From Trypanosoma brucei (lineage: Eukaryota), in assembly GCA_000002445.1 (NCBI GenBank), contig CH464491.1, positions 4,544,001-4,608,000 on the forward strand: DNA of 64,000 nucleotides, written 5' to 3'. Shown here piece after piece: positions 10,311 through 39,423 of this stretch; the stretch's first letter is position 1, and every line of letters starts with the position of its first letter. The notes beneath the pieces were generated by a model. That model worked only from the letters and a program-made list of their open reading frames with translations, had not been told where the DNA came from and ran no database searches. A program made the translations under genes and the position numbers.

Positions 10311-11839
10311 TCAAAATGCTACAAAACTTACAAAAGCACAAGCCATCAAAGCCAATTTCTTATTGAGAAAAATAGAGGGATATTTTCAAGTTTCGCCCTC
10401 CCATTTGCAATCCGGAGATTTGCATTCTTTCTCTACTTTCCCTTTGCATTTCTCTGTTGTTGTTTTCTCTCCTTTTTCTGTTGCTCGTTCTCCCTCTACT
10501 GATTTTATTGGATTGTATTTGTTTGTCTTTTTATCGTATGTGCATGTTTTATCTTGGCACTCCTTGGCCTTGTTGTGAAACTGTTCGCATATTTTTTTGT
10601 TTGTGTAATCATCCTTTGGTGCTGCCGTTTCTGTTGGGAATGCAGTTTCTGCAACATCAGGTTCTGGTTGGCTAGTGTAGTATAGTAGTAATTTGGAATA
10701 TTGGTCGCTGCCTCCGTCTAGGTTTTTCAGTTTATTATCCTTGACGTTTATTCCCCACTCATTGTCGCTTACTATCGTTGTCTGCCGGATGTTTTTTAAG
10801 TAAGTGTTAACAAAGTCGTCGGGTGTTTTGCCCAAAATTTCCCTCAACTGATCCTTCTCACTGTTTGAAGTGGCGAAAGCTGCTGTTTTTAATGTCTTGT
10901 TGAGTTGTATTTGCGCGGTCGCTTGTATAAAGGTGACGTCGTCGAAAAGCTGATTGTAGATCGCCTTGTCGGCTGCTGTTGGTTCGTCAATGTTAATGCT
11001 GTCCAATGCTGTTTGGGCTGCCTCTGCCTCTTTGTACGTCGGTTGGTTTGTGGAGGCTTGTAGGTTGTTCATGCCCGGCACCGCTAGTGTGGGGCCGGCC
11101 GCCATGGTTATTGCGCCGCCACCATAGTAAATTGTCCCTCCGGTCACGGCGTTATTGGCTGGCATCTCTCCTTTTGTTGTGGGTGTGCCGAAGAAAGTAC
11201 AGTCTGCTTTGGTGTACGTGGCTGGGTCGTCTATACTGGATTTGGCGGTTACCGCCTTGAAATTTACGGGTGCTGCTCCTGCGTCTGCGTACCGTTGGAG
11301 CTGCTCTGGCGTTGTCTGGTCGCATCCTGGGACGTTGTCGTTTAGGCCCGTCCACGATGCAACGGAAGCTCCTGTGGCTGCTGTTATAATGCAGCCGCTG
11401 CCGCTTGAAGTTGCTCCGGAAAATTGGCTCAGCAACGACAGAAATTCCGTTGCATGCCCAGCAGCTAGACCTGCACGGACAGAAAAAGTTAGCCCTGCCG
11501 TTGCTGCGCCGTGGAAGGTTGTTGTTTTTGTTCTTTAAATATATCGACGTTGGTAGCAACTGCTGAAGCTAACTTGCCGACGCGTTGCATTTTGTTCATT
11601 TCTGCATAAATAGCCAGCTGGTTTCGTGTAATGGTCAGCTGCTTGATGAACGCTTGAGCTGCCGTCAGCTCCGAGTTGGCATATTGGTGCGATTCTTTTA
11701 GTTCTCCATCCAGCGTGCAGATTGATGTGAACTCAGAGGCCGCAACTGCATACGTTGCGTTGCGAGCCTCAGAAACCGTCAGCATTGCGCTCAAAAGTAG
11801 AAGACGTAGGAGGGCACGCTGCGCCATGTGTTTCTGCAT
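10311..11839 (-). pseudogene. VSG: VSG pseudogene with an N-terminal frameshift and a TGA before the GPI signal
   Basis: Track ORFs 11489..11935 (signal peptide MAQRALLRLLLLSAMLTVSEA) and 10386..11435 lie in different frames. The C-terminus reads ...[44 protein letters not shown]. Confidence 0.85.
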
Positions 11840-12982: not shown

Positions 12983-14582
12983 TTAAAATTTTTTTATTTT
13001 TATATTTACACATATAAATCGAAAAGTATATAAATAAATCAAACTCTCACAAAATAGCTTATTTAATAAAATTGGGCAATAATCCTTTTTAAATTTTAAT
13101 TCTAGAAGCAAAAATGCAAGCAAAAGAAGAGGCTTATGAAGGACAAAAGAATTGTTTCCTGTGGTGTTTGTGGGTTTTCCATCTGTTCCTGTTGCTGTGG
13201 TTACTTTAGCTACACACTTTCCCCCCTTGAATACGCAGCCATCTTCATCTTTGCACTCCCCCTGTGGTTTATCCTTGCATTTTTCTTCTTCTTTTTTGGA
13301 ATCAGTTGCTTCACCGACTGCTGTATTCTTTGCTCCTTCAAGTTCCTTTTTATTTTTTTGCCCTCTCAAGTAGCTTAGAGTCGCTACCATGCTGAAGGGT
13401 GTAGTCAAGTCACTTATCTTCTTATGCTCGGTGGTTTTCTCGCTCCTTGACATAATGTTTTCTGTTTCAAGTTTAGTGATGAAATTTTTGACAAAGTCAT
13501 TGTTAGTGCTGCCATAAGCTCTTTTAATGTATTCTGTTAAGGGCTTGGATTGTTCTGTGTCGTCGAGGTCAGTTTTTTTTTTGAAATTCCGGTACACAGT
13601 TGCGCAGAAACGTTTGGATTGTCTTCCTGTTGCTGAGAGTCTCACCTGTTGCTGTCCGGAGCGTTTTCCCCTCCCCTGCTTTTGCTTTTATCGCCTCACA
13701 GATGGCCTTGGCTAGTTTTTGCGCTGGGCTCATAGCTTCCGCTGATAGACCGCTGACTTCGCCGCAGTTCGTTGTCCTGCTCTCCTCTTTGAATACAGGT
13801 ACTGAACTTTGAGCGTTTCCTGTGGTCGCGGCTGCTGTTGTGAATTCGTATTCTGCAGAGCCGCCGAGGTTGCAGCTCCCTAGCGCTTCTTTGATGCCGG
13901 TTTTGCCGGTGGAGTCGCTCGGACAGTTGCTGCTTGCTGAGCGTATGGATATCGCTGTTTCCTTCAGGCTTTTTACTACATCAGTTGCGGCTGTTAGTTT
14001 TAAGTTTAGTATGTTTTGCTCATTTAAAGGGTCGTCTGCAAAAGGATTGCCTTCTCCTGCCTTTGTCAGGCTGCAGCCGGCATTATTGCCTCTGGCTATT
14101 TTGAGTGACAGCTTGGCTGTGTTTGCGCTGCTGTCTGCATTCACTGGTGTTGTAGAATCTACGATTTTGTAGCTGCTTGCCTCTACCGCCATCTCCAGCA
14201 TACCAAGATGCTTGGCTATCGCCAGCTGTGCCTCTTTTGCCTTTGCCTGTGCTGCCGCTTGTCTGCTGTTCAGTTCGGCCAGTTGCTCTCCGGCCTCGGC
14301 TGCTAGTGCCAGTAGCAGGCACTGTTTGTCAGCTGTCGGTGCCGCTTCACCGTGCAAAGTCCACATATGTTTTAAGTGTTTCAGGTCGGTTAGTGCGGGC
14401 GTCGCAGTGCTCGCCGATTGCCACAGCTTGATGCTTAGCTGTGTTAGGTATTCGTGTTCTTTGCAGTTGTCTGAAATTTTGTTTTCTTCCTTTGTGTGAT
14501 CAGGCCCCGCTTGGACTGCCTGCAATTGCAGGACCGTTGACACTACTACCAACCGAATGCTTGTCTTGATCGCTGCCGCCAT
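12983..14582 (-). pseudogene. VSG: VSG that is nearly intact. It has one frameshift in an A10 run at about 13600 and a possibly extended C-terminus.
   Basis: ORF 13569..14582 gives the N-domain with signal peptide MAAAIKTSIRLVVVSTVLQLQAVQA. ORF 12983..13645 gives the C-domain ...EKCKDKPQGECKDEDGCVFKGGKCVAKVTTATGTDGKPTNTTGNNSFVLHKPLLLLAFLLL, followed by a roughly 30-aa readthrough tail. Confidence 0.8.
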
Positions 14583-15713: not shown

Positions 15714-17163
15714 TTATCGAAACAAAAATTCAAGCAAAAGAGGAGCCTTATTAATCACAATAGAATTTCTCTCTGTTGTGTTTGTAGTTTTGCCATCATT
15801 TTTAACTTTCATGTTATCTTTTTCTACCCATTTATCCCCTTTTAACTCGCAGTTGTCGCTGTTGAAATCATTCTTTTCCATGTTCGCATTATTTTTTGTC
15901 GTTACTTTCGGGAATATTTTGGACATTTGTGGACTTCTGTTTGTCAACCTGATGTCCAAAGGTTATCGAGAGGCCCCCTCTTACATCCGCCACTGTGCTG
16001 AGTAAAGCCTCGGTTAGCTCTTTTTTGTCCCCTGACATTTCGTAACTCAACTTGCTTTGCTACAGTGGTTGTATTAAAGATGCTTGTGGGTTAGTCCTTT
16101 ATTTTCCAAGAGGCGTCCTAACTGCGGCTTTAAGAGAATTTTCATCAACTCCGGCTTTCATATCAAGGTGTACTATTAACTGCGCGTATGTTTGTGCTAT
16201 GGTATCGTTTATTAGCTCCTCTGTGCTTAGTTGTGTGTGCCTCCATTCCTGTATGAGCTCAACTTTCCTGGCCTCGCACACCGCGTGTCCGATGCTCTTT
16301 GCGGTTATGATGAGGTGTGGGTTTGCTGTTTTGTCGACGCATTTTCCTCCCACGTTGTCATTCTGCGTTATCGGTGTTTTTGTGGGTGCTGTTATTGGTG
16401 GTATTACCGGGGGCATTGGGACTCTGAAGCCGTTTGTTGCGCCGCTGAACTCTTCTGCGTTGTTTATACGAGCGCCTTTGCCAATGACTGCACCGTCGTT
16501 GTTACCCGAATTACCTGCAACGTGCACTGCCACTGGTATCGGGTTGTTTGTGAATGCAGCCGTTGCTGTCGTCTTCAGCTTTGTTAGTTTGTCGACTTCT
16601 TCGCCTGCCTTTCCTAGGTTAGTGTTTGTGATCGCCGCTTTGTCGCATTTGACAGCGTCGTCAGTAGTGAGTTTTAGAGTGACTGCGCAAGTCTTGTCTG
16701 CTGATGTTGAAATGCAGTCTGGGTCCGCATCGGTATTGAAGGCTGCATTGCCTACTGCTAGACTTTTTACTCTAGGTTGCTTTACTGCTGTGAGCAGTTC
16801 TGCTCTCTTTTTGAGCACGTATATAGCACGCTGAAGGTTTTTCGTCTTTCCATGCATCTGAGCCCTTTGCTTTAAGCGAACATCAGCTGTGACTGCAGCC
16901 AGCAGTGCATAGCCTCCGGCTTTGGGTATCCATAAGTTTTGCTCGTAAGCTGCTGTTAGCATGGTCAAATCCTCGTTAAGGTCGGATAGCCTCTTCCTCG
17001 TGTCTTTTAGCTGACTGTCAAAATAAGATGCTATGCTTCCGTTGTAGACTACTTCATCGCACAGAGTTGTTATCACCGTTGTTGACTCCTTCTGTTCGGC
17101 GTTTATTCTCGACTGCGTTGTGACTGATATTACGAATGCTAGCGCCAGAGGTCTTGGTAGCAT
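15714..17163 (-). pseudogene. VSG: VSG pseudogene with an intact N-domain and a short, disrupted C-terminus
   Basis: ORF 16099..17163 (354 aa) begins MLPRPLALAFVISVTTQS, a signal peptide followed by the N-domain. ORF 15714..15959 ends ...NDGKTTNTTERNSIVINKAPLLLEFLFR, a GPI signal. An approximately 140-nt gap and frame change lie between them. Confidence 0.8.
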
Positions 17164-18965: not shown

Positions 18966-19204
18966 ACTTCTACCCATAAAACAAACTAATTAAACCCAAC
19001 TATATTATCAACAATTTTCACGCCTTGTTTTCATAATAATTTACGTTCACAGGCTACTATTATACTTGTTTACTAAAAATTTCAAGATTTTTACTAGTTT
19101 GTATATTTCCATAGAAAAGTATTAAAATATATTAAATTTTAGAAAGTTACATAAGTTCATAAAACTAAGCAAAACTCCTTCATAATTTCAAAAAATCAAA
19201 ATGC

Positions 19205-20715
19205 TTAGAATGCTACCGAACTCATAAAATCAGCAGCCATACTCAGACCAAATTTCTTCTTGACTAGAAAACTGGAAGAGAGGCATTCTGGTGGGTCAAG
19301 TTTACCTTTGCCGTCAACATAATCTATCCATCCACATACTGCTTTTTCACCCGGTTTTACATCCTTGTTTTCCGCTTCACATGCTTGCTTAGTTTGGTGT
19401 TTACTGCAATCTACCCCGTTACTTGTCTCTCCTGTTGCTGCTGCTGTGTTTTCTGTTCCTTGTTTAGGTTTGCATTCCTTTTTTAGCTGTCGTAGTCGCA
19501 GTGATCTTTTGGGCATTGTGCAGAAGTTTGGTTTTTCGTTACGCACTGCTCCTGTTTGCCTAAACCATTGTAATTACCGTGTTCCCCTTTTGGTGCATTG
19601 AGCTCAGCACTGACAGCTTGTTTGTAAATCGCCCATGTAGTCGTTTGGAGGGTCTGAAGTTGTATTTTTTATGCATGTTCCCGTGCCTGGGCTGCTGCAC
19701 TGTTGCGTAGTTTGTTCGCAGCATCGACTAGTCTGTTTACCCATGGTATGCCGCCGCCGGTGGTTTCCAGCTGCATTTTGTAATTTATGCACATACCTTG
19801 TCCAGAGCTAGTGTCGCAGCCGCCGTCAGTGTGCGGGCGGCCAAATGTTGATGTTGCTGTCCCCGATGCGCTCGCCTTGGCCGCTTGGTTACATAGCAGA
19901 GCTTCGAACGCCGCTACCTTGGTGTCCAATATGCTGGCCGTGATTAGCTTCCTTTTTTTGTCCGTTTTGCAGGCTGTGATTAAAGCGTCGTACGCTGTTT
20001 TTGCACCTGTACGCCTTGACCCCGAGGCAACGCTGGTCGGCGTTAACCCGGCTCGGCATGTGCCGTCACTGTCTTGTGCATCCTGTGGTACGCACAAGCA
20101 AAGTAAGTCTAATGCTACATACTTGCCGACGTCGGCATGACCGGCTGTTGTCCCGCAGTTGTTTCCGACGGTGGTGGCATCTAGCCCGTTGGCGTCGAAT
20201 TCAGTCTCGTCTTTACCGAAAAGAGCGTTTTTAATTAAGGTTTTTGCCTCTGCTGTTGTTTCTTCCGCTTCTTTGTTTGTGGTTCTGTATTCTTGTGCTA
20301 GTTCAGTCGCTTTCGTGAGCAATGTTTTGATGTTTTCATTGGCTGGCGTTCGGACGTTTTTGTTCTTAAGTCTTTGATACTTGACGGTTGGCGGCGTGCC
20401 CTCTGGTTTGTCCAGCTTTGCTAATGTTGCCTTCGACGCCGCGATTTCGGCTTTCTTTTCACCCGCTTTTGCTTCCGTCAGCTCGCCGTCTTTGTGTTGT
20501 ATGTAGCTGTCCGTGGCTGTTGATATGTTTAGCATTGTTATTTCCGCTACCACTGCGTCCGCCGTTGAATTTTCTGTCGTGACAGCTATTGACGAAACAG
20601 AGTCCTTCAGAGCCAGTATGTCGCACAAAACCCTGAATTCTGCGCCGTTGTCATTTTTTGCACTGTAAATTGTGCCACACAGACCTATCAGTGCCAATAT
20701 GAATTTGTAGATCAT
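19205..20715 (-). pseudogene. VSG: VSG pseudogene with a frameshift between the N- and C-domains
   Basis: ORF 19669..20715 (348 aa, signal peptide MIYKFILALIGLCGTIYSA) stops at 19669. ORF 19205..19546 ends ...CGWIDYVDGKGKLDPPECLSSSFLVKKKFGLSMAADFMSSVAF*. Confidence 0.85.
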
Positions 20716-21099
20716 CAGGTGCTATTACTTCTTTTGTATTCCTTAATTTGTTAAGCATTGAAAGGTATGGAGTTCTGACTGTTTCCTGATTCTGCCTATT
20801 TTTTCAAAAGTTCTGAATTTATTTGACCTCTCTGATGATTGATAACATTATTTATAGTGCTTATAGCTGATGATTTTAAACGATATATGTATTGGTTCTT
20901 CTACTGTCAACAGCTGTCTGGCGGCACTGAGACGGTGGTTCCTTTGTTTGCAGCTGCCACACTTTTTTGATTTAAATAATTCCCCCTTATTAAACGGTTT
21001 ACCACGTACTTCCAGATCCTCAAAATCTTATTCCTTCCGCCTATAGAATATATTTTAATTTTTACAAAATCACTGGTTATAAATTTCTATTTTAAAAGT

Positions 21100-21950
21100 T
21101 CTTTATACCAAGTAAAATTTCTTACAATCAATTCCACCCCTTCTTGTCATGCAATATGCTGCCCAGGAAAATGAATGAATGGCGCCTTTTCGACTTCTCC
21201 ACTATGTGGAATAGAAAAAAATCTCTCCTCGTAATCTAGCTCAATCATTCCTCTCTTCAAAACAAATCTCTGTCCAACAGCTTCTTCTGTAATCGCACTC
21301 CATATTAGCAATGGTTTGTAAATACTCTGCTCTGACCACCATTCCCCACTCCCCTTTAGTAACTCTCCAAATGCATATTCAAACCTTCTAAATGCCCAAA
21401 TTCTGGCTATCAAACCGACACCACTAAGATAAGGCTTTCCACTTGGAGGCGATATTGGTAAGTGGTGTAACTTTTTATCTTTTTTTTCTGCGTCAAACAT
21501 TGACAAACCAGTAGCATCTCTCCACATGATCTTTTACTATATACTCCTCGCTAAATTTTTCCTCATTAGCTGCACTATTCTGTATAAAATATTACACACC
21601 AGTATTATACTTCTGTTCATCAGTAACAATAACATTAGACCCATCTACAGTTATTAAAATATCCTCATCACTTGCATTCTGACTTTCTAAAAATTCCATA
21701 ACTCATCTAGGCATTTTAACATGGCTATACAAACCCCCCATTGTAATTGTAATAATTTCAACATGGCTTAGTTTAGCATTCAATATGGTCTTACACCATT
21801 GTTGAGTTGCATGAGTTTGAACTGCAACCAGAAACAATTTAGTCTTCTTAGCATCACTCTCTGTTAAAATTCCCGTTGTATCTCCTCAAAGTGATATTAG
21901 GCATGAAAACAATGGGTATAACAGTAGCTGTTATAGAAAAGTTGTGGAGA
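21100..21950 (-). pseudogene. ORF X copy A. An unidentified degenerate ORF lying upstream of a VSG, homologous to 28700-29480.
   Basis: ORF 21147..21527 reads ...KPYLSGVGLIARIWAFRRFEYAFGELLKGSGEWWSEQSIYKPLLIWSAITEEAVGQRFVLKRGMIELDYEE.... Upstream frames give MEFLESQNASDEDILITVDGSNVIVTDEQ... and ...KLFLVAVQTHATQQWCKTILNAKLSH... with stops and frameshifts. Confidence 0.6.
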
Positions 21951-22804
21951 TAAAAAATTTCATTTACTAATATATGTTTAAAATTTGAAAGGGTTATAAT
22001 TAAAATTACTAACTTTAATAAAATTAATCAGTTATATCACTGGGGTTGTGGCAAAAAAAAGATATTTATATATAAGTAATTCCTTCTTATTGTTATGATA
22101 TCTCTGTTTAGTGGTTTATACTTAGTTTCTGCAGCTTATCTTTTAACGGGCATATTGTTCTATTGGTTTGTAAATTAGCTTTACCCATAGGAGCTTCCAT
22201 ATACTACGTGCATTACGCTGTTCGTTGCATTCATATTTCCCTTCCGTGCATTGTTTTAAGAGTTGCAGTAGTTAGGTGAACCGACTATTTCAAATATACT
22301 AATAGTCACAGGTTTCCTGTTATAACACCCCATCGACCATGTTTCACCATAAGACCCTGCCACCTCAGATTTATTAGCAACCGCTGCTGAAGTTAATACC
22401 ATTATCTATGCAGTAGCAGCTATCCACTTTTGGTAGCAGTGTATGGCACAAAATTCTGCTGTGTCATTTCTTCCTGAGTGTCACTTACACTGTCATTTAA
22501 CTCTATTTTTTATTTATCTCGTGTTTTGCACCTTCCTTTGCTGTTAATAGAGCATTGACTCTAATTGGATTCTACATTAAACTCTGTTTTTTCCTCATTG
22601 TCCATTCTATCATATCCTCGTGTTAGAAGTTGCGCATATGGCATACTCATTTCTTTCTCTATTTTTCATCGAATTTTCTTTAATAATATTCCTTTTCAAA
22701 TCTTGCACTCTTACACACCTAATCTGCCTCACTCACTCACTCCCATTACATTCTCATAATTGTTAAAATTTCTTTTATTTTGAGTGTCCATTTAGCCTTC
22801 ACAG

Positions 22805-22900
22805 ATATACTCATTATAACATTAATGTATACACACTCACAACACTCTTCTGTTGTTATTATTATTTCTATCACTCTTGTAGTCATGATATTCATAAAAT
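22805..22900 (-). repeat. 70-bp-type repeat, minus orientation
   Basis: cattataacattaatgtatacacactcacaacactcttctgttgttattattatttctatcactc. Confidence 0.75.
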
Positions 22901-23149
22901 GGTCAAAATTATCTATATTGGAATAGCGCTCTTTTATCAAACCCTTTCTCCATACTAATATACACCCATAGGCCACAATCATGCAAATGTCCTATATTCT
23001 CTGAATTTAAATTTTTCACCAGTTTTAAAAAGTTTTATAAAAGGAGTTAAAGCTTATCAAATTTTAGGAAATATATCAATCCTCTCAAAGTAGCAAGTTT
23101 CATAAATTTCATAAAATTTACCCAAGATATTTAAAATTCTACAAAAATT

Positions 23150-24560
23150 AGCCCAGAAAATACCTGAGGAGCAGAAACTCTCAAATTGCTAGAAAACGAC
23201 TTTTCATTTTTTTTTTCGGTTTCAGGTTTAGGAAATAATTTTGGGTCTTTTTTCTCATCAAAATCACAACATTTTTCATCTTTTCACGGTTTAGCTGTTG
23301 TATGCTTTTCGTATTCGTCTGCTGTTTTGGTCGAATCTGTTGTCTTGTTTGTTTTGGTGGGATAAAAAGGATTTGCTTGTGTTTTTTTGTTCCTGTTGCT
23401 CAATAAAGTGACGATCAGTGCAATATGTTGTTGCATCTGTAGTGTCTTATGGTGCTGTTATTGCTTTCATTTGTCTGTCACCATTTCAACAAACGGCGGC
23501 TTTGGGTGGTGTCAGTTCGTTAACCGATTTCCCTACTGTGTTTTAAGTTTTTCGGCACTTTCGCCAATTGGTGCCTTTAGTAAATTGTCCACTTTAGTTT
23601 TTGTCGCTCCGCTGTACTTGGTTTGTTCACCTTCTATTGTTTGAGACATCCGCTATTTAAGTCTGTTACTTGCTATTATGGTTGAAATTCTGCGCTGACG
23701 GTGAGTGTAGAAAGGTCTGACATCACCTTTTCTAGTGCCATGATGCTGGAGAGTTCTCTTTTTATTGTTGCTGGCGATGGTATGGCGCAGGTTTCGCTTG
23801 ACGTTGAGTAGTCGGAGCTGCCGTCGGTGGATTTGCGGCTGAGTTTCAAATTTTTTGGTTCGAAGACGCTGCCGTCTACCATAGCTACCTTGGTGGTTTG
23901 TGCTGAGACGCACGCGTGGGTTCGTGATCTTTTGCCTGTGCAGGTGGTACAGCCGCAGACAGTTAGTGGGCTGGTTGTTGCGTCTTTTGCGACAATCGAG
24001 GGTTTGAATGCTATTACAGTTATGGATCTTGTGCCTGCCGGTGATGCATTTGTTTTGGATGCTTCTTGTTACCTGTTTGACTCGCCTTTCATGCAGAAGC
24101 CGTGTTTCGTCGGTGTTACTGCTGGTTTTATCTTGGAGTAGTTTTTGTATTGGTACGCGCTTGATGTTTTAAGGTACTCTGAGTCTTGGATAGCCGCGGT
24201 GGATAGGTCGTGAATTGCTTCTATTTTACCGAAAATTCTGTAAGCGGCCGCTGCCGCTTCGAATATAGTTTGCCTGTGTTAGTTTATTTTTTCCAACAGT
24301 TTACTTGAGTCTGCTGAGATTGCCGGAGCCAGCAGGCATGTTGTTGCCGATCGCGCGCCGTTTTTTTCAGCTTCCAATAGCTGCAGCTTTGCAATTTTGT
24401 CAGTTTCTTGTTGCGCCTGCTTTGATGCTGTTGTTATCATCTGCAGTGCGTTGGCTGCAAGTTCTCTTAGATAATCTGCTGTGTGTCATGGTGCCATAAC
24501 GGTCGGTTTGTTCTGGTGCAGTGCCGAAGATCGCTTTACATTTGTAACGACCAATGTCAC
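23150..24560 (-). pseudogene. VSG: Decayed VSG pseudogene (N-domain remnants, degenerate C-terminus)
   Basis: The minus-strand translation contains ...HTADYLRELAANALQMITTASKQAQQETDKIAKLQLLEAEKNG..., a VSG N-domain helical region, and ...CGCTTCTGKRSRTHACVSAQTTKVAMVDGSVFEPKNLKLSRKSTDGSSDYSTSSETCAIPSPATIKRELSSIMALEK.... Several stops are present. Confidence 0.65.
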
Positions 24561-25509
24561 TAATAAAAGAGATACAGGTGCCTTAGCATACGATAAAGTT
24601 GCATCTATGCATCCAAAAGAGCTATCTCGTATTTCTGTGATATGTGCTTCCTTCCCGAATGGCATGCTGCGCGTTAGTTTCCTTTTCTTAGTGCTTTTGG
24701 CCGGATATTGTGTCTGAAAGGGGTGAAATGATCACTGCTTCTCTAGAAAGCAGTTATAAGTAAAATAGTATGCCACGTAAAAAACAATATCGGCTTTAAG
24801 ATATTATCTATAGCATTCTACACATATACATATCTGTACGTTCTATTATTTATTGTCGTTGTTTTCTTCTATTGCAGGATGACTGTCTTGTCTGAATGAA
24901 TCTTTGATGACGATATAACACTGTCGGTTCGCACTGCTATCCTGGTTTATTGCCGAAAATTCCCTCTTTTCTTGAAACTGTGGCACTGACTGTGAACTTT
25001 TTCTTTGAAGTTTCTTGATGAGATCCATCAATGGTTTGTCTTTGTATATACTCTTACGAATGAACCGTCACCTGAATTTGTGTGAAAGTTTGCCTCTTAG
25101 ACATTATGGGGGGAAGGAGTATTATTATAAAATTTCTGTACTTAATAAAACTCTTCTTCATGCTTTCATCACAGGTCTCTTATTCTCTTTTTATAATTCT
25201 CCGTTTCTTTTCTTTTGACGTCAGTAACTTCTCCTTTTTATACCACTGTGTACAACATGGCTGCTACATTTCCTATGTAACTGCGCCGCGTCTTTTTGAT
25301 ATTCTTTGTTTACATATTCTTTCCCACGAAACTACATTGGTCATTTCTGCGTTTACTGTTGCGTATATTCCATCTTCATCATCCTCTATTTTTCTACATT
25401 TCCTTTTATAAGAATATTCTTGTACCCACTGTGTCACTAACTTACTTCCATTCCACACCTAACTTTGTTTTAGAACCTTCAAATTCGGTTGTAAATTTAT
25501 TCTCCACCA

Positions 25510-25610
25510 CCGCTTTTATTATAATATTACTATTTTTACACCACAACGGAACTCTCCACTATCACTATCATTACTATTAGTGTTATTATGTTAACCCTAA
25601 CTATTTTTTA
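25510..25610 (-). repeat. Degenerate 70-bp-type repeat, minus orientation
   Basis: tacaccacaacggaactctccactatcactatcattactattagtgttattatg. Confidence 0.6.
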
Positions 25611-25740
25611 CAAAACAAACAAAAGCAGAAAAGCACTAATTATTCATACCCTCTCAACCTAATGTTTTACATATATAAACCGTTATTATAAAAAACTTAA
25701 TACTTTAGAATTTTTCACATTTCGCATAGGTTTTACAAGA

Positions 25741-25756
25741 GTGTTAAAATATATCG
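25741..25756 (-). promoter_or_regulatory. VSG 3'UTR 16-mer
   Basis: The plus strand reads gtgttaaaatatatcg, the reverse complement of CGATATATTTTAACAC. It lies about 70 nt downstream of the stop of the intact VSG. Confidence 0.6.
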
Positions 25757-25822
25757 AATATTTTAGATTTGTTAAATTCTCTATAAAAATTCACAAAATT
25801 AAGAAAAATTCTTCAATTTTTA

Positions 25823-27256
25823 TCATAGAAGCAAAAATGCAAACAAAAGGGGTGCCTTATGAATGACAAAACAATTGTTTCCTGTGATGATTGTGGTTTT
25901 TCCAACTTTTTCAGCATGACTTTCTGCTTCTTTCGCTGCTTGTTTACCCTTGTCACTCAATACGCATTGCGGTTCTTCTTTTTTTGTCTCGTCATATTTG
26001 CAGTTTTTGTCAGCTTTGCAGGTATCGGCATCTTTTTTTTCGTTGCAAATTTGTTCCCGGGTTTTTGATTTCTTCTTGGTAGTTTCTTGTAACTCCGTCA
26101 GCTGCTTTTGAAGTTTTTCTAGTTGCTGGTCTTTTAGAGCTTCATAATACCCCGTAACCCGTGTTAATTCTTGGAAGCTGTTGATGCTACCTAGTTTTCT
26201 GTCCGAAGCCTCTGGTAAAGCTTCTTTTGCGACCTCTAATTTTTCCACTACATGCCACAACGCTTGGTTAATTTTGCTGCCTGCGTCGCCAAATTCCTGG
26301 GTTTTGAGTTCTGCGCCTTCGCTGTCTTTTTTTTCTTGTGATGCTGCTGCGCGGCTCGCTAGGGTCGACAGTGTTGCAAGTTGTTCCGTACTTTTGTTGC
26401 CCGCGGCTGCACCCGCTTTGCCTTCGATCGCGTTTAGTGTTTGCAGTGCCGTTTTTTCCGTGAAAAGAGCAAGGTGGGTTGCCTCTTGTGCCGTAGAAGG
26501 GTCAAAGGCCTTGGTTTTTAGCCCGTCCTTTTTTAAACCCACTAGGCCGTCCAGGAAATCGATCGTCCTTGTATTGACATGGCCGCTGTGAAAAAGACAG
26601 TCACTTTGCGTGCTTGTTAGTGCACAGGTCTGGTGGTTGGTCGATGTTAGCGCTGTTCCGCTGCGTGGTGCCAGTCTTACGTTTGCTGCTGTTGGCTTCT
26701 TCGCTGGGTTGTGTGGTCGGTCTGCTTTGTAGCGTTCCGTGCACGCCGCATTTAGCTGTGACTTTGTTTTTGCTGTTGACGATGTAGCGTCGCCTGTCCG
26801 AGTGCACGCGCCGTTGGCGCCTGCTGCGCCCGCCTCCGCTCCGATTAGAAGATCCATTACCGCGTCTACACCAGCTGCGACGTAATTTGTTGCTGCCGTG
26901 TACCCCAGAGCCGTTTGACAGTTGTTGACTGTGTCCGTAAATTCCGCTATGCAGTAGTCTATGTACGCGTTGGCCAGGGTCCTCAGCTTGGTTCGTTGTG
27001 TTGCAGTAGACAGTGTTTCGGCATATATCTTGAGTCTTAGTGCCTGGTTGATTCCTACTGAAGCCGCCGCGTCAAGTTCTGATATTAGATGTTTAGCGTA
27101 ACCTTCTGATTTTTTTAGCTCGTCTGATACAGCACACAAAGGATTAAAATCTTCTTCGTGTATGCCCTGACCTGCCGCTGCCTCCGCTTTCTGTATCGCT
27201 GCTCCTGCCACGAGAGAAGCCGCCACAGTTAAGAATATTTGAAGTAAAGAACGCAT
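25823..27256 (-). CDS. VSG: VSG, apparently intact (477 aa)
   Basis: A single ORF with signal peptide MRSLLQIFLTVAASLVAGAAIQKAEA, an N-domain, a Cys-rich C-domain (...CNEKKDADTCKADKNCKYDETKKEEPQCVL...) and a GPI signal TTIITGNNCFVIHKAPLLFAFLLL*. Confidence 0.85.
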   Translation of the reverse strand: MRSLLQIFLTVAASLVAGAAIQKAEAAAGQGIHEEDFNPLCAVSDELKKSEGYAKHLISELDAAASVGINQALRLKIYAETLSTATQRTKLRTLANAYIDYCIAEFTDTVNNCQTALGYTAATNYVAAGVDAVMDLLIGAEAGAAGANGACTRTGDATSSTAKTKSQLNAACTERYKADRPHNPAKKPTAANVRLAPRSGTALTSTNHQTCALTSTQSDCLFHSGHVNTRTIDFLDGLVGLKKDGLKTKAFDPSTAQEATHLALFTEKTALQTLNAIEGKAGAAAGNKSTEQLATLSTLASRAAASQEKKDSEGAELKTQEFGDAGSKINQALWHVVEKLEVAKEALPEASDRKLGSINSFQELTRVTGYYEALKDQQLEKLQKQLTELQETTKKKSKTREQICNEKKDADTCKADKNCKYDETKKEEPQCVLSDKGKQAAKEAESHAEKVGKTTIITGNNCFVIHKAPLLFAFLLL

Positions 27257-28604
27257 CAGTCGCTATTTGCTAGCTTGGTGTGAGTTAGCAAAAAGAGAAA
27301 AGACTGTAGTGATATCTTCGACTGTAGCTGCGCTCCTTTTAAGTATTAACGGATCCAAAAGCCACGGTTGTATGTTTATCACAAATAACATTTATATGAA
27401 GCTTTATGGTCGCCGTGTTACAGACAGAGTCGCTCGAAAAGTGTCGTTTGCAAAGCATAAAAATTTTATGAAACCAACTTTCAAGAAGATGTAAATGTTA
27501 TTTTTCAAGAGCACTGCCACATTATTTTAAATCCGTAACGGTCTGTATCTATTGTATATATACTCCTCCTCCACACGTCCAGTCCTTCACTCCTTTAAAA
27601 ACAGCGTACATTTCTATACCTAAAAGTACAAACTTCATGACTTGTCGGTGATGCTGCTTGGTGGTAATTATATATTACATACGGGTGAAACAACCCGGTA
27701 CAGCTGCTGTTTCTCGCTGGTGCGGTTAGTTTTCCGTTTCTTCTATTTATTATGGCTGACTTGTGGTCTTGATTCAGCTTCCTTTCATGCTGCGACATTT
27801 TAATACCCTACTTTAAATGAGGTTGACTCTTGATCTTTAGATGTGGCATTCGATCACTGAATAGTGTTAACTTCTCCTCTGTACAACAGTATGGAATTAG
27901 TGGAGTTTTGCTTTCAATTCTTTTAACTTCATCAAAATTCTCACTAAGTTTATGTTAGCGAGACTTTAGATTTATTTTACTTCTTTATTCTTTTGCATCC
28001 TCGGTCATTCAATAATAATCATTGTTTTAAATTCTCCTCCCAATAATATAATATTGTTCACCACCAAGTGTTGGTCATTATTATTATATCCTAGAAAAAG
28101 AAGAACTTGGTGTTGCATCAATTTAATAAATCCATCCCTCCCACTTCTACTGTATCTGCTTATATATTTTGTGGTTTTTCACAGCTGAATATTAGGATTC
28201 ACTATCATATTGAAAAATGCAAACTAATATTTCCACTGTAAAAACTATTTTACAGTGAGCTATAGAGAATCATCTTCTTATCATGATGTATTTTTTTGTT
28301 CTTTTGCTATCATGTACTCTTTTTTTATTATTTATTTTCTTTTTTTGTTTTCATATACTGCTTTACTTCCTGCAGCTACATCAGCGATGATATGTGTCCT
28401 GTGCACTGGACTCTGCCTTTCCGTGATTGCTTTCCCCACCTTTTTGTGTATATTTATGACAGTCTTAGTATTTGTATAAAAAACTACGCATATTACATAT
28501 CTTCTCCCCATATCTTACTTCATTTAACATCCCAATTCACTCACTTATTCCCATTAAGCTTCGTCAATTTTTTAACTACCTTTATTTGAGTTATGCCTTT
28601 ACTT

Positions 28605-28675
28605 TCCACTGCTCTTATTATAATATAAGTATATACTCACAACACATTCAACGTTTCATATTAGATTAGAATATT
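28605..28675 (-). repeat. 70-bp-type repeat, minus orientation
   Basis: ctgctcttattataatataagtatatactcacaacacattcaacg. Confidence 0.65.
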
Positions 28676-28699
28676 AAATATGATATTAAAAAACTTATA

Positions 28700-29480
28700 C
28701 TGTTGTTACTAAATTTAGAGTGTTTATGCTCAATATCTATTCATGAGGACACAAAGGGAAATATAACAGAAAATGAGCCTACGAATCCCAAAGTGTTTCT
28801 GGTTGCAGTTCAAACTCATGCAACTCAAGGATGGTGTAAGACCATATTGAATGCTAAACTAAGCCATGTTGAAATTATTACAATTACAATGGGGGGTTTG
28901 TATAGCCATGTTACGAGACCGACATGAGTTATGGAATTTTTAGAAAGTCAGAATGCAAGTGATGAGGATATTGTTATTCATTTGTATGTATTTGATGTTA
29001 TTGTTAGTGACGGAGAGAATTTTGGGACTACTGTGGAACACTTTTTAAAAAAGACTGCAGAAAATGAAGAGAAGTTTAGTAAAGAGGATATAGTAAAAGA
29101 TCATGTGAAGAGATGCTATTGGGTTCTTTAAAGTCGGTTAAAGGAAAGAAGAGAATAAAGAGTTACCTCATTTACTAAAGCCATCCCCTAGTAGAAAACC
29201 TTATCTTAGTGGTGGTGAATTAATTGCAAGAGTCTGGGAATTTTAGGAATTTGAATATGCATTTGAAGACTTATTGAAAGGGAATGAAGAATTTTTGTCA
29301 GAACAGAGCATCCACAAACCTTTACCAATATGGAGTGCGATTAAAGAAGAAGCTGTTGGACAAAGATTTTTTTGAAGAGAGGAATGATGGAACTAGATGA
29401 TGAGGAGATATTCTCTTATATTCCTAGTAGTTGTTGAGTTGGAAAGGCTACATTTATTTATTTTCCTTAAAAAACCGAAT
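28700..29480 (+). pseudogene. ORF X copy B (plus orientation), degenerate. It is homologous to 21150-21950 in reverse complement.
   Basis: Frames give ...NPKVFLVAVQTHATQGWCKTILNAKLSHVEIITITMGGLYSHV..., MEFLESQNASDEDIVIHLYVFDVIVSDGENFGTTVEHFLKKTAENEEKFSKEDIVKDHVKRCYW, and ...YLSGGELIARVWEF*EFEYAFEDLLKGNEEFLSEQSIHKPLPIWSAIKEEAVGQRFF.... These are interrupted by stops. Confidence 0.6.
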
Positions 29481-29851
29481 TTTTGGATAGAAAAAGCGAA
29501 ATTTATTGTGAAAAAACTTACTTGTTATGATGAATTGTGGAGGAGACAATTTAGTACAAGAGAGATCGGCATAATTAAAAGTTACGCTGCTGATAGAAGA
29601 AAATGTGTTTTTAAATACACTCAAGGTTGTGGTTATGCGTCTTAATATGATGACTTATTTAAGGCTATAAAGTTTGAAAGAGAACAAGAGGGGAATTCAT
29701 CCCAACTCAGAAATAAAAGACAACGGTGTTAAATACAAACCAAAATGCCAACAGGCTAACACCAATGAGGTACCAAACATTTTCCATAACATGAACACCA
29801 TCGACTACAGCTCTAAATAAAATTCAACTGAAGTAAACAAAAAAAGACGGT

Positions 29852-31403
29852 ATGCAGCTGGAAGCTAAAGCGAAAGCACTTGTAACTGAACTGCGAGGAG
29901 TACTTTCAGTGGCGCCAGCTAGCGCCGTCGTGGCAGCAGGTGAAAATTCCGACGTTTTTTTCAGCCTCTGCAGCCTGATAAGAATAGCGAAACAAACCAT
30001 CAAGGTGCGGCAACACACGAGAGCGAAACTGTGGCTTACACCAAAATGCAGCAACTAAACAGAAGCCTAAGTCCGGCAAGCTGGGGGGGGAGCAAACTTT
30101 GCAAAGAAAGGATCAGACAACAAACGCCCGGACTACGACGAAGATACCGTGACCGTGAAAGAAATCAGGAAGCGCCGCTGGCCTCACTGGAAAGATGCAG
30201 AAGACAAATTAGAACCGAACGACGCGGAAGCTAACAAGCTCAAATCGGCGGGCCTAATAAAGGGATCTGACGAAAGCAAAGAAAGACTGCGCGTCGCGAT
30301 CCAGCCTCTACTAGAAGAGGCTGACAGTATAGTCCACAAGCTGGAGAACCCTACACCCGACCTGGAGATAATAAAACCAGATTCGATCAAAAAGATACTA
30401 ACTGACGCCGCCTTCGGCAGCGGCATAACAGACGCTGAAAAACTTGCAGACAATGTAATCGCGGGTACAACGGCAAACTCAGCAAACAGAGACGACCTTT
30501 GCGGCAAAGCAGCTGCGTCGGCAACAGCTAACACCGCAGCGGCGTTTATGTACTGCATTTGCGCAGCGGAGGGGAGCGAGAACTCAGGAAACCTGAAAAT
30601 CTGCCACAGTCAACAAGCCGACACAGGGATTCGAAAAACAACAATGACTGACAGCGCAACCTGGCTAAAGGCGTTGATAAAACAATGTCCAGAAGGCAGC
30701 CAGGAGGAGCTGGAGCCAGAAAGCCTAGAAGCAGCGGTTAACCAACTGCAGACAAAACTCAAACCAGGGGCTAGCGGTTTGTACTACGGCAAATTCGCGG
30801 CCAACGGATGCACGGGGGAATCCAACAGCGGTGCCTGTGTTTTCAACAAGGACTCAGCGGCCGGGGACATAGGTAAGATAAAGGAATCAGCGTGGATTAC
30901 GCAAATGAAACTAGCAGCAAAACAACTAAGAGCCAACGACAACGCAATACGCAACCGACAGGTCCTCACAGCACGTCTTGAGGAATTGCGCAGACAGGCC
31001 TTCCGCACGCAGGCGCAGCTTACGCTGACAGAAAAAAAAAAGTCAGCAGCAAGGTCGTTTAAAAGCAAGTGGTGCAGACACAAAAACAACATAAACCATC
31101 AAAAACCAATGCGAGGCGATAGAAAAAGCAACACTTTGCAAAGAAAAGGAAGAATGCAAATGGGAAGGCGGTGAAGCGTCTGAGGGAAAACACTGCAAAC
31201 TGAAAGAAAAAAAAGTGGAAAGAGAAACCCAAGCAGGAACAGAAGACAAGAAGGAGGAGAAATGCAAGGGGAAAGGACTGAAAGAGGGCGGAAAAGCTAC
31301 TGCTTGCAAATGGGAGGGTGAAACTTGCAAAGATTCCAGTTTCCCCGTCAATAAGAGATTGCCTCTGATTGTTTCCGCTTTTATAGGTTTGGTAGAATTT
31401 TAG
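29852..31403 (+). pseudogene. VSG: VSG pseudogene with in-frame stops and a frameshift before the C-domain
   Basis: The ORFs are 29852..30058, 30149..31174 (N-domain) and 31215..31403. The last ends ...[49 protein letters not shown]. Confidence 0.85.
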
Positions 31404-31628: not shown

Positions 31629-31692
<64 letters not shown>

Positions 31693-31810
31693 GAGGAGAG
31701 TGTTGTGAGTGTGTATATACGAATATTATAATAAGAGCAGTAATGATAATAATAATGATAATTATAGATGAATGTTATGGGTGTGTATCTAGTAATGTTA
31801 TAATACTTTC
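31560..31810 (+). repeat. 70-bp-type repeats, 2-3 copies, with an expanded (TAA)n tract
   Basis: ...gatgatgatgataataataataataataataataataataataataataataataataataagaggagagtgttgtgagtgtgtatatacgaatattataataagagcagtaatgataataataatgataatt... Confidence 0.85.
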
Positions 31811-37976: not shown

Positions 37977-39423
37977 ATGCTAAGACAAAAAGCCCGGAAG
38001 TCCGCAGTTTTTCTGGCGGCATTTGTGGGCGCGGTATTCGCACAGGATGAAGAGTCCTCAGTCGAAGCAATAAAGAGCACGTGTGATGAAGCGGTGTGGC
38101 TTCAGACCGTCCAAGATCATTACATCAAAAATGTACAAACAGCTGCAGCTCGAAATTCTGACCTACTCACAGAAGCCAGGAACCTAACCCTAGCCGCGGC
38201 ACAGTTCTCCGACCAAACGCAACAGGCGGTACTAACCTCGTTAGCTGCCATTGCAGACCAGCGAGCAACTGCAGCGGCAGCGATCCTAAATCGAGAAACA
38301 CCAAGCTTACTAGCAGCGGTAGCCTTGCTGAACGAACGACGCGGCAACGTCCGAGCACTGTCGCTTATAATGAACACCCAGGAATCCGCAACTTTCTCAG
38401 GGTCGACGACAACGGCTGGCGACAACGTACTCTTTGCCGCGACAACAGTCAAGTGCTTTCTAATAGCAACACTGGACAAGAAACCCACAGCGGAGTGCAC
38501 AGTAACGGAACAGAGCGCGACGAAGCTAGTAGATGCAGGACACCACCTGGCCAAAATAACGAAAATGAAAGCGATACCGCTAACAAAATTTGGCATGCCT
38601 CAACTTGGTGTGGACATAGAAACGAAAGGTACGTTCACCGCAGGCAGTAACCAAGCAAACGAAAATAACAAATGCGCAGACAAACCCATAAAAAGCAGTG
38701 AAACCAACGGTGCCGGTTTAACGAAACTAGCACTAAATCAACCTACAGCGGCACCAACGGACGTGAAAATGAAAGATAACGACGGCTTCGTAAACGTATC
38801 CAAAGAAAAAGACCACTACATCACCACTGGGACCCAGGTAGCAAGCGCCACCTATAACCTAAGAGCCCTAACATCCAAACTTCTAGGAAAGATAGCGGAT
38901 GAAACAGCCGATTCCCTGAGCAACGACCACAACGTTCAGAACGTAATTTACCTCACACTCGGTAAAGGAGAAAATATCAATGACAGCACCGACCAAAAAG
39001 CAGAAAAGATAAAAAGCCTGTTTGGCGGCGCCGGGACCAAACTGTAAGACAAATTTTTTTCGACTTTCAACGCAGACAACATAAAATATACTGTTGGTAA
39101 ACAAACCGTAACCACGAGCGTAGCGAAGGCTGAAAGTGATTCAAACTACGCAATAACCCTAGCATTTTCGCATAAAAGCCAACACGGCAATAGCCAGAGC
39201 AAGGAATTCCAGAGAGCAGGTGAAAGCACCGACAAAATCAAAGAAACTGAATGCAGAAATAAAAAAGACAGAGGCAAATACAAGGAAAAGAATGGGTGTG
39301 AATTCAAAGATGAAGATTGCAAAGTTAAAGTGACCACAGCAACAGAAACAACAGAAAACACCACAGAAAGCAATTCTTATGTCATTAACAAGGCTCCTCT
39401 TTTGCTTTTATTTTTGCTTTTAT
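37977..39423 (+). pseudogene. VSG: VSG that is full length except for a single in-frame TAA (39045-39047) at the N/C-domain hinge
   Basis: ORF 37977..39047 (356 aa, signal peptide MLRQKARKSAVFLAAFVGAVFA). The same frame continues after the TAA, reading ...GAGTKL*DKFFSTFNADNIKYTV...ETECRNKKDRGKYKEKNGCEFKDEDCKVKVTTATETTENTTESNSYVINKAPLLLLFLLL*. Confidence 0.85.

Follow-up and report, generated by a model that had tools for sequence, protein, structure and literature searches.

GRESAG3 is an ancestral clade of ESAG3-related genes that occurs in all trypanosomatids, at both chromosome-internal and subtelomeric positions. ESAG3 itself, expression-site-associated gene 3, has been shown to be the VSG O-glucosyltransferase (preprint 10.64898/2026.01.27.701950). 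Pseudogenes of ESAGs are common in VSG arrays (PMC4766357), and among the bloodstream expression sites BES7 has an 'ESAG3 pseudogene 3' of 70-bp repeat' and BES15 has two (PMC2567434). ESAG3 pseudogenes in subtelomeric arrays, and between a 70-bp repeat and a VSG, are already known and published, and the feature described here is real but ordinary.

We analyzed a stretch of 64,000 nucleotides from Trypanosoma brucei (the window). It is a VSG array in which VSGs of types A and B, 70-bp repeats and 3'-UTR 16-mers flank the copies described here on both sides. The initial annotation of this DNA had noted a degenerate open reading frame of no assigned family, 'ORF X', that occurs twice in opposite orientation, each time just upstream of a VSG. 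We are highly confident that ORF X represents two dead copies of ESAG3 sensu stricto (Fam53) in a silent subtelomeric VSG array, dispersed non-functional relics whose opposite orientation follows from the flanking strand switch. The features of the locus are collected in Table 1.

Table 1. Coordinates of the two ESAG3 pseudogenes and of surrounding features in the window
Feature	Position	Strand	Details
ESAG3 pseudogene, copy A	20959..21963	-	Residues 1-368, ATG kept
ESAG3 pseudogene, copy B	28673..29675	+	Residues 1-368, start codon lost (first aligned codon is Ile)
Inverted arm pair 1	21505-21910/28720-29125	opposite strands	406 nt, 82% (repeat search)
Inverted arm pair 2	21260-21487/29146-29373	opposite strands	228 nt, 76% (repeat search)
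Inverted arm pair 3	21165-21265/29367-29467	opposite strands	101 nt, 78% (repeat search)
87-nt (29-codon) deletion junction, copy A	21531..21532	-	Boundaries as in copy B and L002
87-nt deletion junction, copy B	29098..29099	+	Boundaries as in copy A and L002
175-nt patch, copy A side	21660..21834	-	Putative gene-conversion tract; shared W90 TGA at 21705-21703
175-nt patch, copy B side	28796..28970	+	Putative gene-conversion tract; shared W90 TGA at 28925-28927
B-type VSG pseudogene downstream of copy A	19205..20715	-	Pfam: VSG_B domain 19669-20715, C-terminal domain 19205-19546; 3'-UTR 16-mer 19119-19134
Intact A-type VSG (477 aa) between the two ESAG3 pseudogenes	25823..27256	-	Pfam; 3'-UTR 16-mer 25741-25756
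B-type VSG pseudogene downstream of copy B	29852..31403	+	Pfam; split into three ORFs
70-bp-repeat remnant, 5' edge of copy A and VSG pseudogene cassette	22828..22866	-	865 nt upstream of copy A
70-bp-repeat remnant of the VSG at 25823-27256	28608..28645	-	Ends 28 nt from copy B start
Next 70-bp repeat after the VSG pseudogene of copy B	31629-31762
Divergent strand-switch junction	28646..28672		Minus-strand cassettes left, plus-strand right; from 16-mer and 70-bp-repeat orientation across the window

Gapped blastn aligns copy A (21165-21910, minus strand) with copy B (28720-29467, plus strand) at 79% identity over 754 nt (E=3e-179), merging three collinear inverted arms into a single alignment, and finds no third copy in the window. 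The spacing between the inner arms is 6809 nt. The homology in opposite orientation is as the initial annotation described it; all of the peptide strings quoted there are found in translations of the two copies, and so are stops in both. However, the gene is longer than was claimed, running in the alignment to intact ESAG3 from 21963 to 20959 on the minus strand and from 28673 to 29675 on the plus strand. Because the homology reaches further, the distances to the VSG start codons shorten to ~244 nt for copy A, which had been placed about 400 nt away, and to ~177 nt for copy B (claimed as about 200 nt). The same arrangement is found at 99.7-100% identity, over the parts covered, in a contig of a Trypanosoma equiperdum assembly, so it is not an artefact of the assembly used here.

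The stitched translations of ORF X match no Pfam family even at E<=10, and ESAG3 was recognized only via a large protein database. A profile built from both copies matches Trypanosoma brucei ESAG3 (Q26748) with E=1.4e-114 and 99% query coverage, and the 90% cluster of Q26748 consists of bloodstream-expression-site ESAG3 genes. Both copies align over nearly the whole length of the 368-aa protein (residues 1-368) by tblastn and by frameshift-aware protein-to-DNA alignment, the latter giving an identity to BES ESAG3 of 66% for copy A and 62% for copy B. In blastp comparisons, made without a tree, the stitched copies are 58-62% identical to 13 BES ESAG3 proteins (E about 1e-140), versus about 25% to a GRESAG3 of Tb927 (P0017; E about 1e-39). 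An ESAG/GRESAG-type pseudogene had been among the identities initially proposed, and it is the one borne out. A homologous-protein search with intact ESAG3, made to add pseudogene loci, returned ESAG3 alone, and exact look-ups of ESAG3 (P0001) and of the 126-aa ORF of copy A matched no record.

The product of the intact parent ESAG3 is a Mn2+-dependent, UDP-glucose-specific, retaining GT-A O-glucosyltransferase acting on class-B VSGs. By family profile and modelled structure it is predicted to have a GT-A fold of the LH3/PLOD type. The only family in the PDB matched by the ESAG3 profile is LH3/PLOD3 (6wfv_A, E=2.1e-7). With an AF2 model of ESAG3 (pLDDT 86) as the query, the top ten Foldseek matches are LH3 chains, with E about 5e-10 (4.5e-10) and a TM of 0.65 normalised to the isolated GT domain. 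ESAG3 scores 16.5 bits against Pfam GT_PLOD (PF25342), for which the gathering threshold is 27; a relative (P0043) passes. The same relationship to LH3/PLOD is reported in preprint 10.64898/2026.01.27.701950.

Copy A contains seven stops (at about codons 10, 25, W90, E127, Y190, W305 and S325), two frameshifts (near residues 192 and 344) and the catalytic substitutions D113N and G215V. Its best-preserved part is the C-terminal half, with an ORF of 126 aa at 21147-21527. Copy B contains five stops (W90, Y190, K225, V289 and K358), three frameshifts (near residues 184, 265 and 299) and the catalytic substitutions D110Y, G216E, W242L and H297Y. The lesions common to the two are an 87-nt deletion, the stops at W90 and Y190, and one frameshift. 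Neither copy combines an intact ORF with the full set of catalytic residues (D110, D113, G215-G216, W242, E244/Q245 and H297), whose roles are taken from preprint 10.64898/2026.01.27.701950. Judged from these lesions, neither copy can encode a functional O-glucosyltransferase, and presumably neither is transcribed or translated.

The 87-nt deletion removes ESAG3 residues 148-176 from both copies. In the predicted model this segment holds the core beta-strand E154-159; it also contains the conserved CYAPQ motif and, in the family alignment, the invariant or near-invariant residues F156, C162 and Q166. The boundaries of the deletion are identical in A, B and a copy at another T. b. equiperdum locus (L002), so the three are members of a single dispersed lineage of pseudogenes, older than their separation. 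A T. b. gambiense copy (L003) still has the segment. We found no description of this deletion lineage in the ESAG3 literature searched. Outside a 175-nt patch of high identity, A and B are 70.6% identical in the middle of the gene (A-L002 74.7%, B-L002 74.3%) and 60.8% identical in its 3' part (A-L002 61.7%, B-L002 61.5%). By this measure A and B are no closer to each other than to L002, and are not each other's closest relatives.

The differences between A and B outside the patch are distributed 71/70/111 over the three codon positions (p=0.0015), and NG86 dN/dS is about 0.3. Purely neutral decay, with all A-B divergence post-mortem, was rejected on this residual coding signal in the codon-position counts and dN/dS. 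Such a signal would be unexpected if the common ancestor of the copies was already dead. In combination with the shared lesions it would require either that copies already diverged acquired these lesions, the deletion among them, by gene conversion, or that functional members of the family donated patches of sequence.

Within the 175-nt patch the identity between A and B rises to 95.4%, compared with 67.8% elsewhere. The patch has an LLR of 35.9, a value reached in 0 of 200 permutations (maximum 9.8), and normalisation to family conservation gives an OR of 0.32 (p=0.003). Conservation across all four copies is highest in this same region of the gene (77-88%), and some of the heterogeneity in identity therefore stems from old constraint and not from conversion. 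The patch is probably a gene-conversion tract, and would then be a concrete case in which two array pseudogenes on opposite strands, separated by 7 kb, underwent gene conversion.

Pfam upholds the three VSG calls of the initial annotation around the copies. The divergent strand switch that the copies were said to bracket is also real; however, it is not midway between them but lies against the 5' end of copy B, where the junction can be located to within about 27 nt. The description of ORF X as a passenger in the VSG upstream region suits copy A, which is found between a 70-bp repeat and its VSG, but not copy B, which has no upstream repeat on the same strand. The sole repeat near copy B is opposite in orientation and belongs to the neighbouring minus-strand VSG. 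Between two of the 70-bp repeats, the interval 22867-25506 gave nothing by Pfam or by tblastn with four window VSGs. By eye, the interval looks VSG-like.

Several other explanations of the pair can be weighed against this evidence. We give practically no credence to the idea that one or both copies are functional ESAG3 or GRESAG3 genes whose stops and frameshifts are sequencing or assembly errors. Copy A does retain its ATG and the open stretch of 126 codons, about 83% identical to ESAG3 by a hand count on the alignment, and the period-3 divergence signal shows past coding constraint. However, the second assembly has the same sequence over the parts covered, and the 10-12 lesions per kilobase are beyond what errors would yield. 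The 87-nt deletion and the Y190 stop are common to both copies, the deletion is also present in a copy from another genome, and catalytic residues are substituted, four of them in B and two in A. There is similarly next to no chance that ORF X is a very degenerate GT67/beta3-glycosyltransferase like the pseudogene at 59569-60678, a kinship that had been suggested from a similar order of motifs. Both are GT-A-type enzymes with an acidic DxD-like motif, and the hunch is right in that broad sense only. Neither copy matches Pfam Galactosyl_T at E<=10, whereas the pseudogene at 59.5 kb matches this family (PF01762), and tblastx finds zero matches between that pseudogene and ORF X. The match to ESAG3, in contrast, is strong and full-length, and the ESAG3 profile and fold searches lead to LH3/PLOD3. 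The GT67 kinship is not borne out, which removes a false lead: ORF X is neither a new gene nor GT67-like.

It is also very unlikely that an 'ESAG3 pseudogene plus VSG' cassette was duplicated locally in inverted orientation, giving A and B as its two arms and creating the divergent strand switch, even though the copies are opposite in orientation and 6.8 kb apart, both are just upstream of a B-type VSG pseudogene, the switch abuts the 5' end of copy B, and the deletion, two stops and one frameshift are shared. The homology stops at the ESAG3 body, and blastn and tblastx detect no specific similarity between the VSG sides or between the upstream sides of the two copies, on which ground a mirror-image duplicated cassette was rejected. 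Additionally, outside the patch the likeness of A to B is no greater than that to the T. b. equiperdum copy, and 865 nt separate copy A from its 70-bp repeat where copy B has no same-strand repeat. We consider it unlikely, too, that the dead copies are kept for a role at the DNA level, as homology tracts guiding recombination of the adjacent VSGs or as boundary elements of the strand switch. Breakpoints of recombination in expression sites fall at ESAG3 loci, which have been suggested to help orient exchange (PMC2567434). The putative conversion tract connects A and B, and ESAG3 pseudogenes lie between a 70-bp repeat and a VSG both in BES7 and in the copy A cassette. However, most of the sequence is at 60-75% identity between copies, which is too low for efficient homologous recombination, and there is no sign of selection on the DNA here; passive hitch-hiking fits equally well. 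A dsRNA or hairpin role of the inverted repeat was rejected on reasoning alone. The arms lie in divergent transcription units, so both would be transcribed as sense ESAG3, and one transcript covering the two would need to pass through the strand switch.

We favor a history of dispersed relics, in which segmental duplication and ectopic recombination, the processes that shape VSG arrays, would have spread the ESAG3 copies. Each of the two now has an unrelated B-type VSG pseudogene within about 250 nt downstream. Gene conversion may later have homogenised the 175-nt tract between A and B, and perhaps another tract of about 90 nt as well. Alternatively, such sequence may have been copied into both from a common donor, again by gene conversion. 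The opposite orientation would merely reflect the position of the copies on either side of the divergent strand switch, which lies right next to the 5' end of copy B. As genes A and B would do nothing; at most they would offer homology for recombination.

A preferential link between ESAG3 pseudogenes in silent arrays and class-B VSGs, either as relics of an ancestral enzyme-plus-substrate cassette or as a handle of homology carried along when B-type VSGs move into expression sites, is conceivable but doubtful. The VSG beside the ESAG3 pseudogene is B-type in three of three typed cases (copy A, copy B and L002). As about half of the VSG repertoire is class B, this corresponds to a p of about 0.125, and the three copies, being related by descent, are not independent cases. 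Common ancestry is not detectable among the VSGs adjoining these three pseudogenes, and the VSG that lies downstream of the T. b. gambiense copy yielded a C-terminal domain alone, with no N-terminal class. We take the VSG 427-3 of BES7 to be the VSG3 of the ESAG3 preprint. In BES7, which holds the class-B VSG 427-3, an ESAG3 pseudogene is located between the 70-bp repeat and this VSG (PMC2567434). The genome-wide placement of dead ESAG3 copies relative to class-B VSGs is newly meaningful because ESAG3 has just been shown to be a VSG O-glucosyltransferase.

With this assignment an 'unknown ORF' becomes a named pseudogene family, which has little import beyond annotation. The 87-nt deletion is a handy lineage marker for the dispersed ESAG3 pseudogene group and may help in modelling the evolution of VSG arrays, as may the near-identical 175-nt tract and the close placing of the strand-switch junction.

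The closest solved relative of the family is the GT domain of LH3/PLOD3. The parent ESAG3 resembles it in the predicted GT-A fold, the DxxD motif (D110/D113), the glycine loop (G215-G216), the acidic-polar pair (E244/Q245) and the C-terminal His297. However, ESAG3 falls below the Pfam threshold, the identity is only about 15%, and the window copies are without key residues. LH3/PLOD3 acts on collagen galactosyl-hydroxylysine, whereas ESAG3 acts on VSG serine/threonine, as an 18-mer ring (preprint 10.64898/2026.01.27.701950). The GT67/beta3-glycosyltransferase pseudogene within the window is alike in its setting, with 70-bp repeats upstream of it and about 160 nt between it and a downstream B-type VSG, but GT67, whose members are UDP-Gal/UDP-GlcNAc-dependent and Galactosyl_T-like, has no detectable sequence relationship to ORF X and is another GT family with other closest structures. 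GRESAG3 and ESAG3 share a superfamily and a set of motifs; identity of the window copies to the T. brucei GRESAG3 representative is only about 25%, versus about 60% to ESAG3 sensu stricto. From functional ESAG3 the copies differ in their stops, frameshifts, lost catalytic residues and the 87-nt deletion. They are like ESAG3 and its subtelomeric pseudogenes in Trypanosoma brucei in standing directly 5' of a VSG, a position published for the ESAG3 pseudogenes of BES7 and BES15, in their setting in a silent VSG array, and in their full-length homology, with 58-66% amino acid identity despite decay.

The initial annotation had described an ORF of unassigned family, ORF X, as a homologous pair in opposite orientation, here copy A (minus strand) and copy B (plus strand). 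A repeat search recovered this pair as three collinear inverted arms of 406, 228 and 101 nt (82, 76 and 78% complementarity, respectively), which pair 21165-21910 with 28720-29467 and have 6809 nt between their inner ends. By gapped blastn the copies form one merged 754-nt alignment (79% identity, E=3e-179) and are the only two in the 64-kb window. Every peptide string quoted in that annotation is present in our translations, which contain the stops it reported and frame changes as well.

Conceptual translations of the two copies gave no Pfam match, even at E<=10. A stitched profile of both, searched against a large protein collection, returned the single match Q26748 (E=1.4e-114, 99% coverage), a T. 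brucei protein of 368 amino acids whose 90%-identity cluster comprises the ESAG3 genes of Lister 427 and T. b. gambiense bloodstream expression sites. In tblastn and in a frameshift-aware protein-to-DNA alignment, each copy extends from ESAG3 residue 1 through the C-terminus. Because the stitched copies share 58-62% identity with expression-site ESAG3 versus ~25% with a T. brucei representative of GRESAG3, an ESAG3-related clade, they are by sequence members of ESAG3 sensu stricto. Of the two families previously proposed for ORF X, an ESAG/GRESAG-type pseudogene was therefore the right one, as the profile match and full-length alignment indicate. The other, a GT67/beta3-glycosyltransferase resembling the pseudogene at 59569-60678, is refuted: that pseudogene touches Pfam Galactosyl_T whereas ORF X does not, and tblastx found no similarity between them. 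The glycosyltransferase-like layout that had been noted holds only as far as the GT-A superfold, not as GT67/beta3-GT.

With intact ESAG3 as the query, exhaustive HMMER searching found 46 representatives at E<=1e-3; the entries consulted are ESAG-like proteins from T. brucei, T. vivax, T. conorhini and T. congolense, and unnamed environmental sequences. The motifs VQTxxSPGWCRM, DxDVVVxFDGxDT, CYAPQ, YLNxGGxIGRVWA, WWCDQS, LDYxxxFF and LHFxG recur in a 21-member family alignment. ESAG3 itself is below the Pfam GT_PLOD threshold (16.5 bits versus 27), which one relative passes. Both the family profile and the predicted fold match LH3/PLOD. In a PDB search with the profile, LH3/PLOD3 was the sole match (best E=2.1e-7) and the alignment spans the DxD motif. 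For the AlphaFold2 model of intact ESAG3 (pLDDT 86, pTM 0.83), the best ten Foldseek matches are all LH3 (E ~5e-10, TM 0.65 normalised to the isolated GT domain), followed by Mimivirus R699 and other GT-A enzymes. ESAG3 has been shown in a 2026 preprint to be a Mn2+-dependent, UDP-glucose-specific, retaining GT-A O-glucosyltransferase that is required for O-glucosylation of class-B VSG3, with a catalytic set defined by experiment (D110, D113, G215-G216, W242, E244/Q245, H297) (10.64898/2026.01.27.701950). By these four lines (Pfam, PDB profile, Foldseek and the preprint) the ESAG3 family is an LH3/PLOD-like GT-A family.

Features of the window and the additional ESAG3 pseudogene loci (window coordinates unless an accession is given)
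Feature	Position	Strand	Remarks
ESAG3 pseudogene, copy A	21963-20959	-	66% identity to ESAG3 (frameshift-aware alignment); ATG kept; 7 in-frame stops; 2 frameshifts; D113N, G215V
ESAG3 pseudogene, copy B	28673-29675	+	62% identity to ESAG3 (frameshift-aware alignment); start codon lost; 5 in-frame stops; 3 frameshifts; D110Y, G216E, W242L, H297Y
VSG, B-type	19205-20715	-	broken between N- and C-terminal domains
VSG, A-type	25823-27256	-	intact, 477 aa
VSG, B-type	29852-31403	+	three ORF pieces
VSG 3'-UTR 16-mers	10241, 15613, 19119, 25741	-	
VSG 3'-UTR 16-mers	39460, 44895, 54244, 58035	+	
70-bp-repeat remnants	12809, 15381, 18875, 22828, 25507, 28608	-	
70-bp-repeat remnants	31629, 35447, 40836, 45033, 58180, 62613	+	
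Minus-strand order, right to left		-	70-bp repeat 28645-28608, intact VSG 27256-25823, 70-bp repeat 25545-25507, 2.6-kb interval, 70-bp repeat 22866-22828, 865-nt spacer, ESAG3 pseudogene A, 244-nt spacer, B-type VSG pseudogene
Plus-strand start		+	ESAG3 pseudogene B at 28673, 177-nt spacer, B-type VSG pseudogene
ingi-like non-LTR retrotransposon	3875-8912	+	three large ORFs
ORFs of 337-356 aa in VSG-cassette positions	10386-11435, 13569-14582, 16099-17163	-	
ORFs of 337-356 aa in VSG-cassette positions	37977-39047, 49657-50709	+	
ESAG3 pseudogene locus L002	CM010678.1:229913-246200		T. b. equiperdum
ESAG3 pseudogene locus L003	FN554968.1		T. b. gambiense DAL972

Both copies are predicted to be dead as genes. 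Four lesions are common to them: TGA replaces Trp90, a stop replaces Tyr190, the frame shifts at about residues 184-192, and an in-frame 87-nt deletion removes residues 148-176. Beta-strand 154-159 of the predicted ESAG3 structure falls inside the deletion, and the CYAPQ motif is lost with it (Cys162 is invariant and Phe156/Gln166 nearly invariant in the 21-member alignment).

Pfam domains bear out the three adjoining VSGs of the initial annotation. The pseudogenes lie just upstream of their VSGs, as it proposed, but at shorter distances: because both copies extend to the ESAG3 C-terminus, only ~244 nt (copy A) and ~177 nt (copy B) separate the pseudogene end from the VSG start codon. The minus-strand series is bounded on its right by a 70-bp repeat and the plus-strand series opens directly with copy B, which confines the divergent strand switch to ~28646-28672 (~27 nt), immediately beside the 5' end of copy B. 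On its left the switch is bordered by a 70-bp-repeat remnant in minus orientation, on its right by the opening codons of copy B; no same-strand 70-bp repeat was found for this copy among the remnants mapped across the window. Upstream of the ATG, a flank of ~70 nt is common to copy A and L003 and missing from copy B, which places a rearrangement breakpoint at the gene start.

The whole arrangement recurs with 99.7-100% identity on T. equiperdum contig CZPT02001055.1 (assembly GCA_001457755.2); the species assignment follows from an NCBI protein labelled T. equiperdum, which maps to this assembly. An N run in that contig (L001:15813-15889 in the coordinates of locus L001, corresponding to window ~21400-21273) falls inside copy A, and the contig end (window ~21102) does too. 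Evidently the repeat family broke this assembly, whose gap is closed by the window sequence.

Between two minus-oriented 70-bp-repeat remnants, the 2.6-kb interval 22867-25506 matches a VSG cassette in size and, by eye, resembles a VSG on the minus strand. No match there came from Pfam or from tblastn with four window VSGs, and the 3'-UTR 16-mer is absent; the interval is probably a very decayed VSG. The five ORFs of 337-356 aa have no Pfam VSG-domain match at E<=1e-3 and are presumably divergent VSG N-terminal domains missed by profiles. The ingi-like element, with endonuclease (Exo_endo_phos_2), reverse transcriptase (RVT_1), RNase H and C2H2 zinc-finger domains, has a higher GC content (0.52-0.53) than the remaining array.

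Copies A and B could be read as the arms of a recent local inverted duplication, in line with the inverted cassettes pictured in the initial annotation. This is not supported: the homology ends with the ESAG3 body, and neither the downstream VSGs nor the upstream flanks have specific similarity. Two further ESAG3 pseudogene loci, L002 and L003, were reached via annotated ORFs inside them. In a four-way alignment the boundaries of the 87-nt deletion are identical in A, B and L002, and the segment is retained in L003. When two high-identity stretches (a 175-nt patch and a region of ~90 nt) are left out, A and B are no more similar to each other (70.6% in the middle, 60.8% in the 3' part) than to L002 (74.7 and 61.7% for A, 74.3 and 61.5% for B). 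Given the deletion shared with L002 and these identities, A and B are old members of one dispersed lineage of pseudogenes that the deletion marks, and not the halves of a recent local event. At both L002 and L003 a VSG pseudogene lies within a few hundred nucleotides downstream of the ESAG3 pseudogene, as in the window, and L003 has a 70-bp repeat 861 nt upstream. In L002 itself the ESAG3 copy (L002:7800-8790) has a truncation at residue 74 and is fused directly to the 3' end region of the A-type VSG before it; no 70-bp repeat separates the two, and the fusion is likely a recombination junction inside ESAG3.

Within the 175-nt patch (A 21834-21660, B 28796-28970) A-B identity is 95.4% versus 67.8% elsewhere (log-likelihood ratio 35.9; none of 200 column permutations above 9.8). 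Old constraint accounts for part of the contrast, since the four copies are all best conserved in the patch region (77-88%). However, the excess A-B similarity persists after normalising to L003 divergence (odds ratio 0.32, p=0.003), and protein-level selection does not explain it, since the Trp90 TGA, present among the four copies in A and B only, falls in the patch. The most economical reading is that the patch would be a gene-conversion tract, either between A and B or from a common donor into both. The ~90-nt region (A 21327-21237, 89% A-B identity) may be another.

Outside the patch, A-B differences at codon positions 1/2/3 number 71/70/111 (p=0.0015) and dN/dS is ~0.3, so that part of the divergence arose under protein-level selection. 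Such a signal is surprising if A and B descend from an ancestor that already had the 87-nt deletion. Period-3 divergence despite shared disabling lesions suggests lesion spread by conversion or import from functional members. Conversion among copies that had diverged before may have spread the deletion and the other lesions common to A and B. Stretches may have been brought in from functional ESAG3 genes, and residues 192-305 of copy A are indeed open and ~83% identical to ESAG3 (hand count). Finally, constraint on the deleted form may have persisted for some time.

All three typed VSGs next to ESAG3 pseudogenes are class B (copy A, copy B and L002:8930-10600). With about half of the repertoire class B, three of three gives p ~0.125 (overall ~0.06-0.13) in a sample that is too small and whose members are not independent; the count is weak because the copies share descent, and the adjoining VSGs give no sign of common ancestry. 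BES7, a bloodstream expression site with an ESAG3 pseudogene next to its VSG (PMC2567434), holds class-B VSG 427-3, which we take to be the VSG3 of the preprint, and class B is the enzyme's own substrate class (10.64898/2026.01.27.701950). We nevertheless consider a preferential linkage of ESAG3 pseudogenes to class-B VSGs improbable. The GT67-like pseudogene at 59569-60678 follows 70-bp repeats (58180-58359) and precedes an intact B-type VSG of 503 aa (60836-62347) by ~160 nt. Its layout is that of copy A, a dead glycosyltransferase between a 70-bp repeat and a B-type VSG, although the two glycosyltransferase families are unrelated.

VSG arrays commonly contain ESAG pseudogenes (PMC4766357). 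In both BES7 and BES15, ESAG3 pseudogenes lie between the 70-bp repeats and the VSG, and recombination breakpoints coincide with ESAG3 loci (PMC2567434). The ESAG3 pseudogene pair described here is an ordinary feature of an already known kind.
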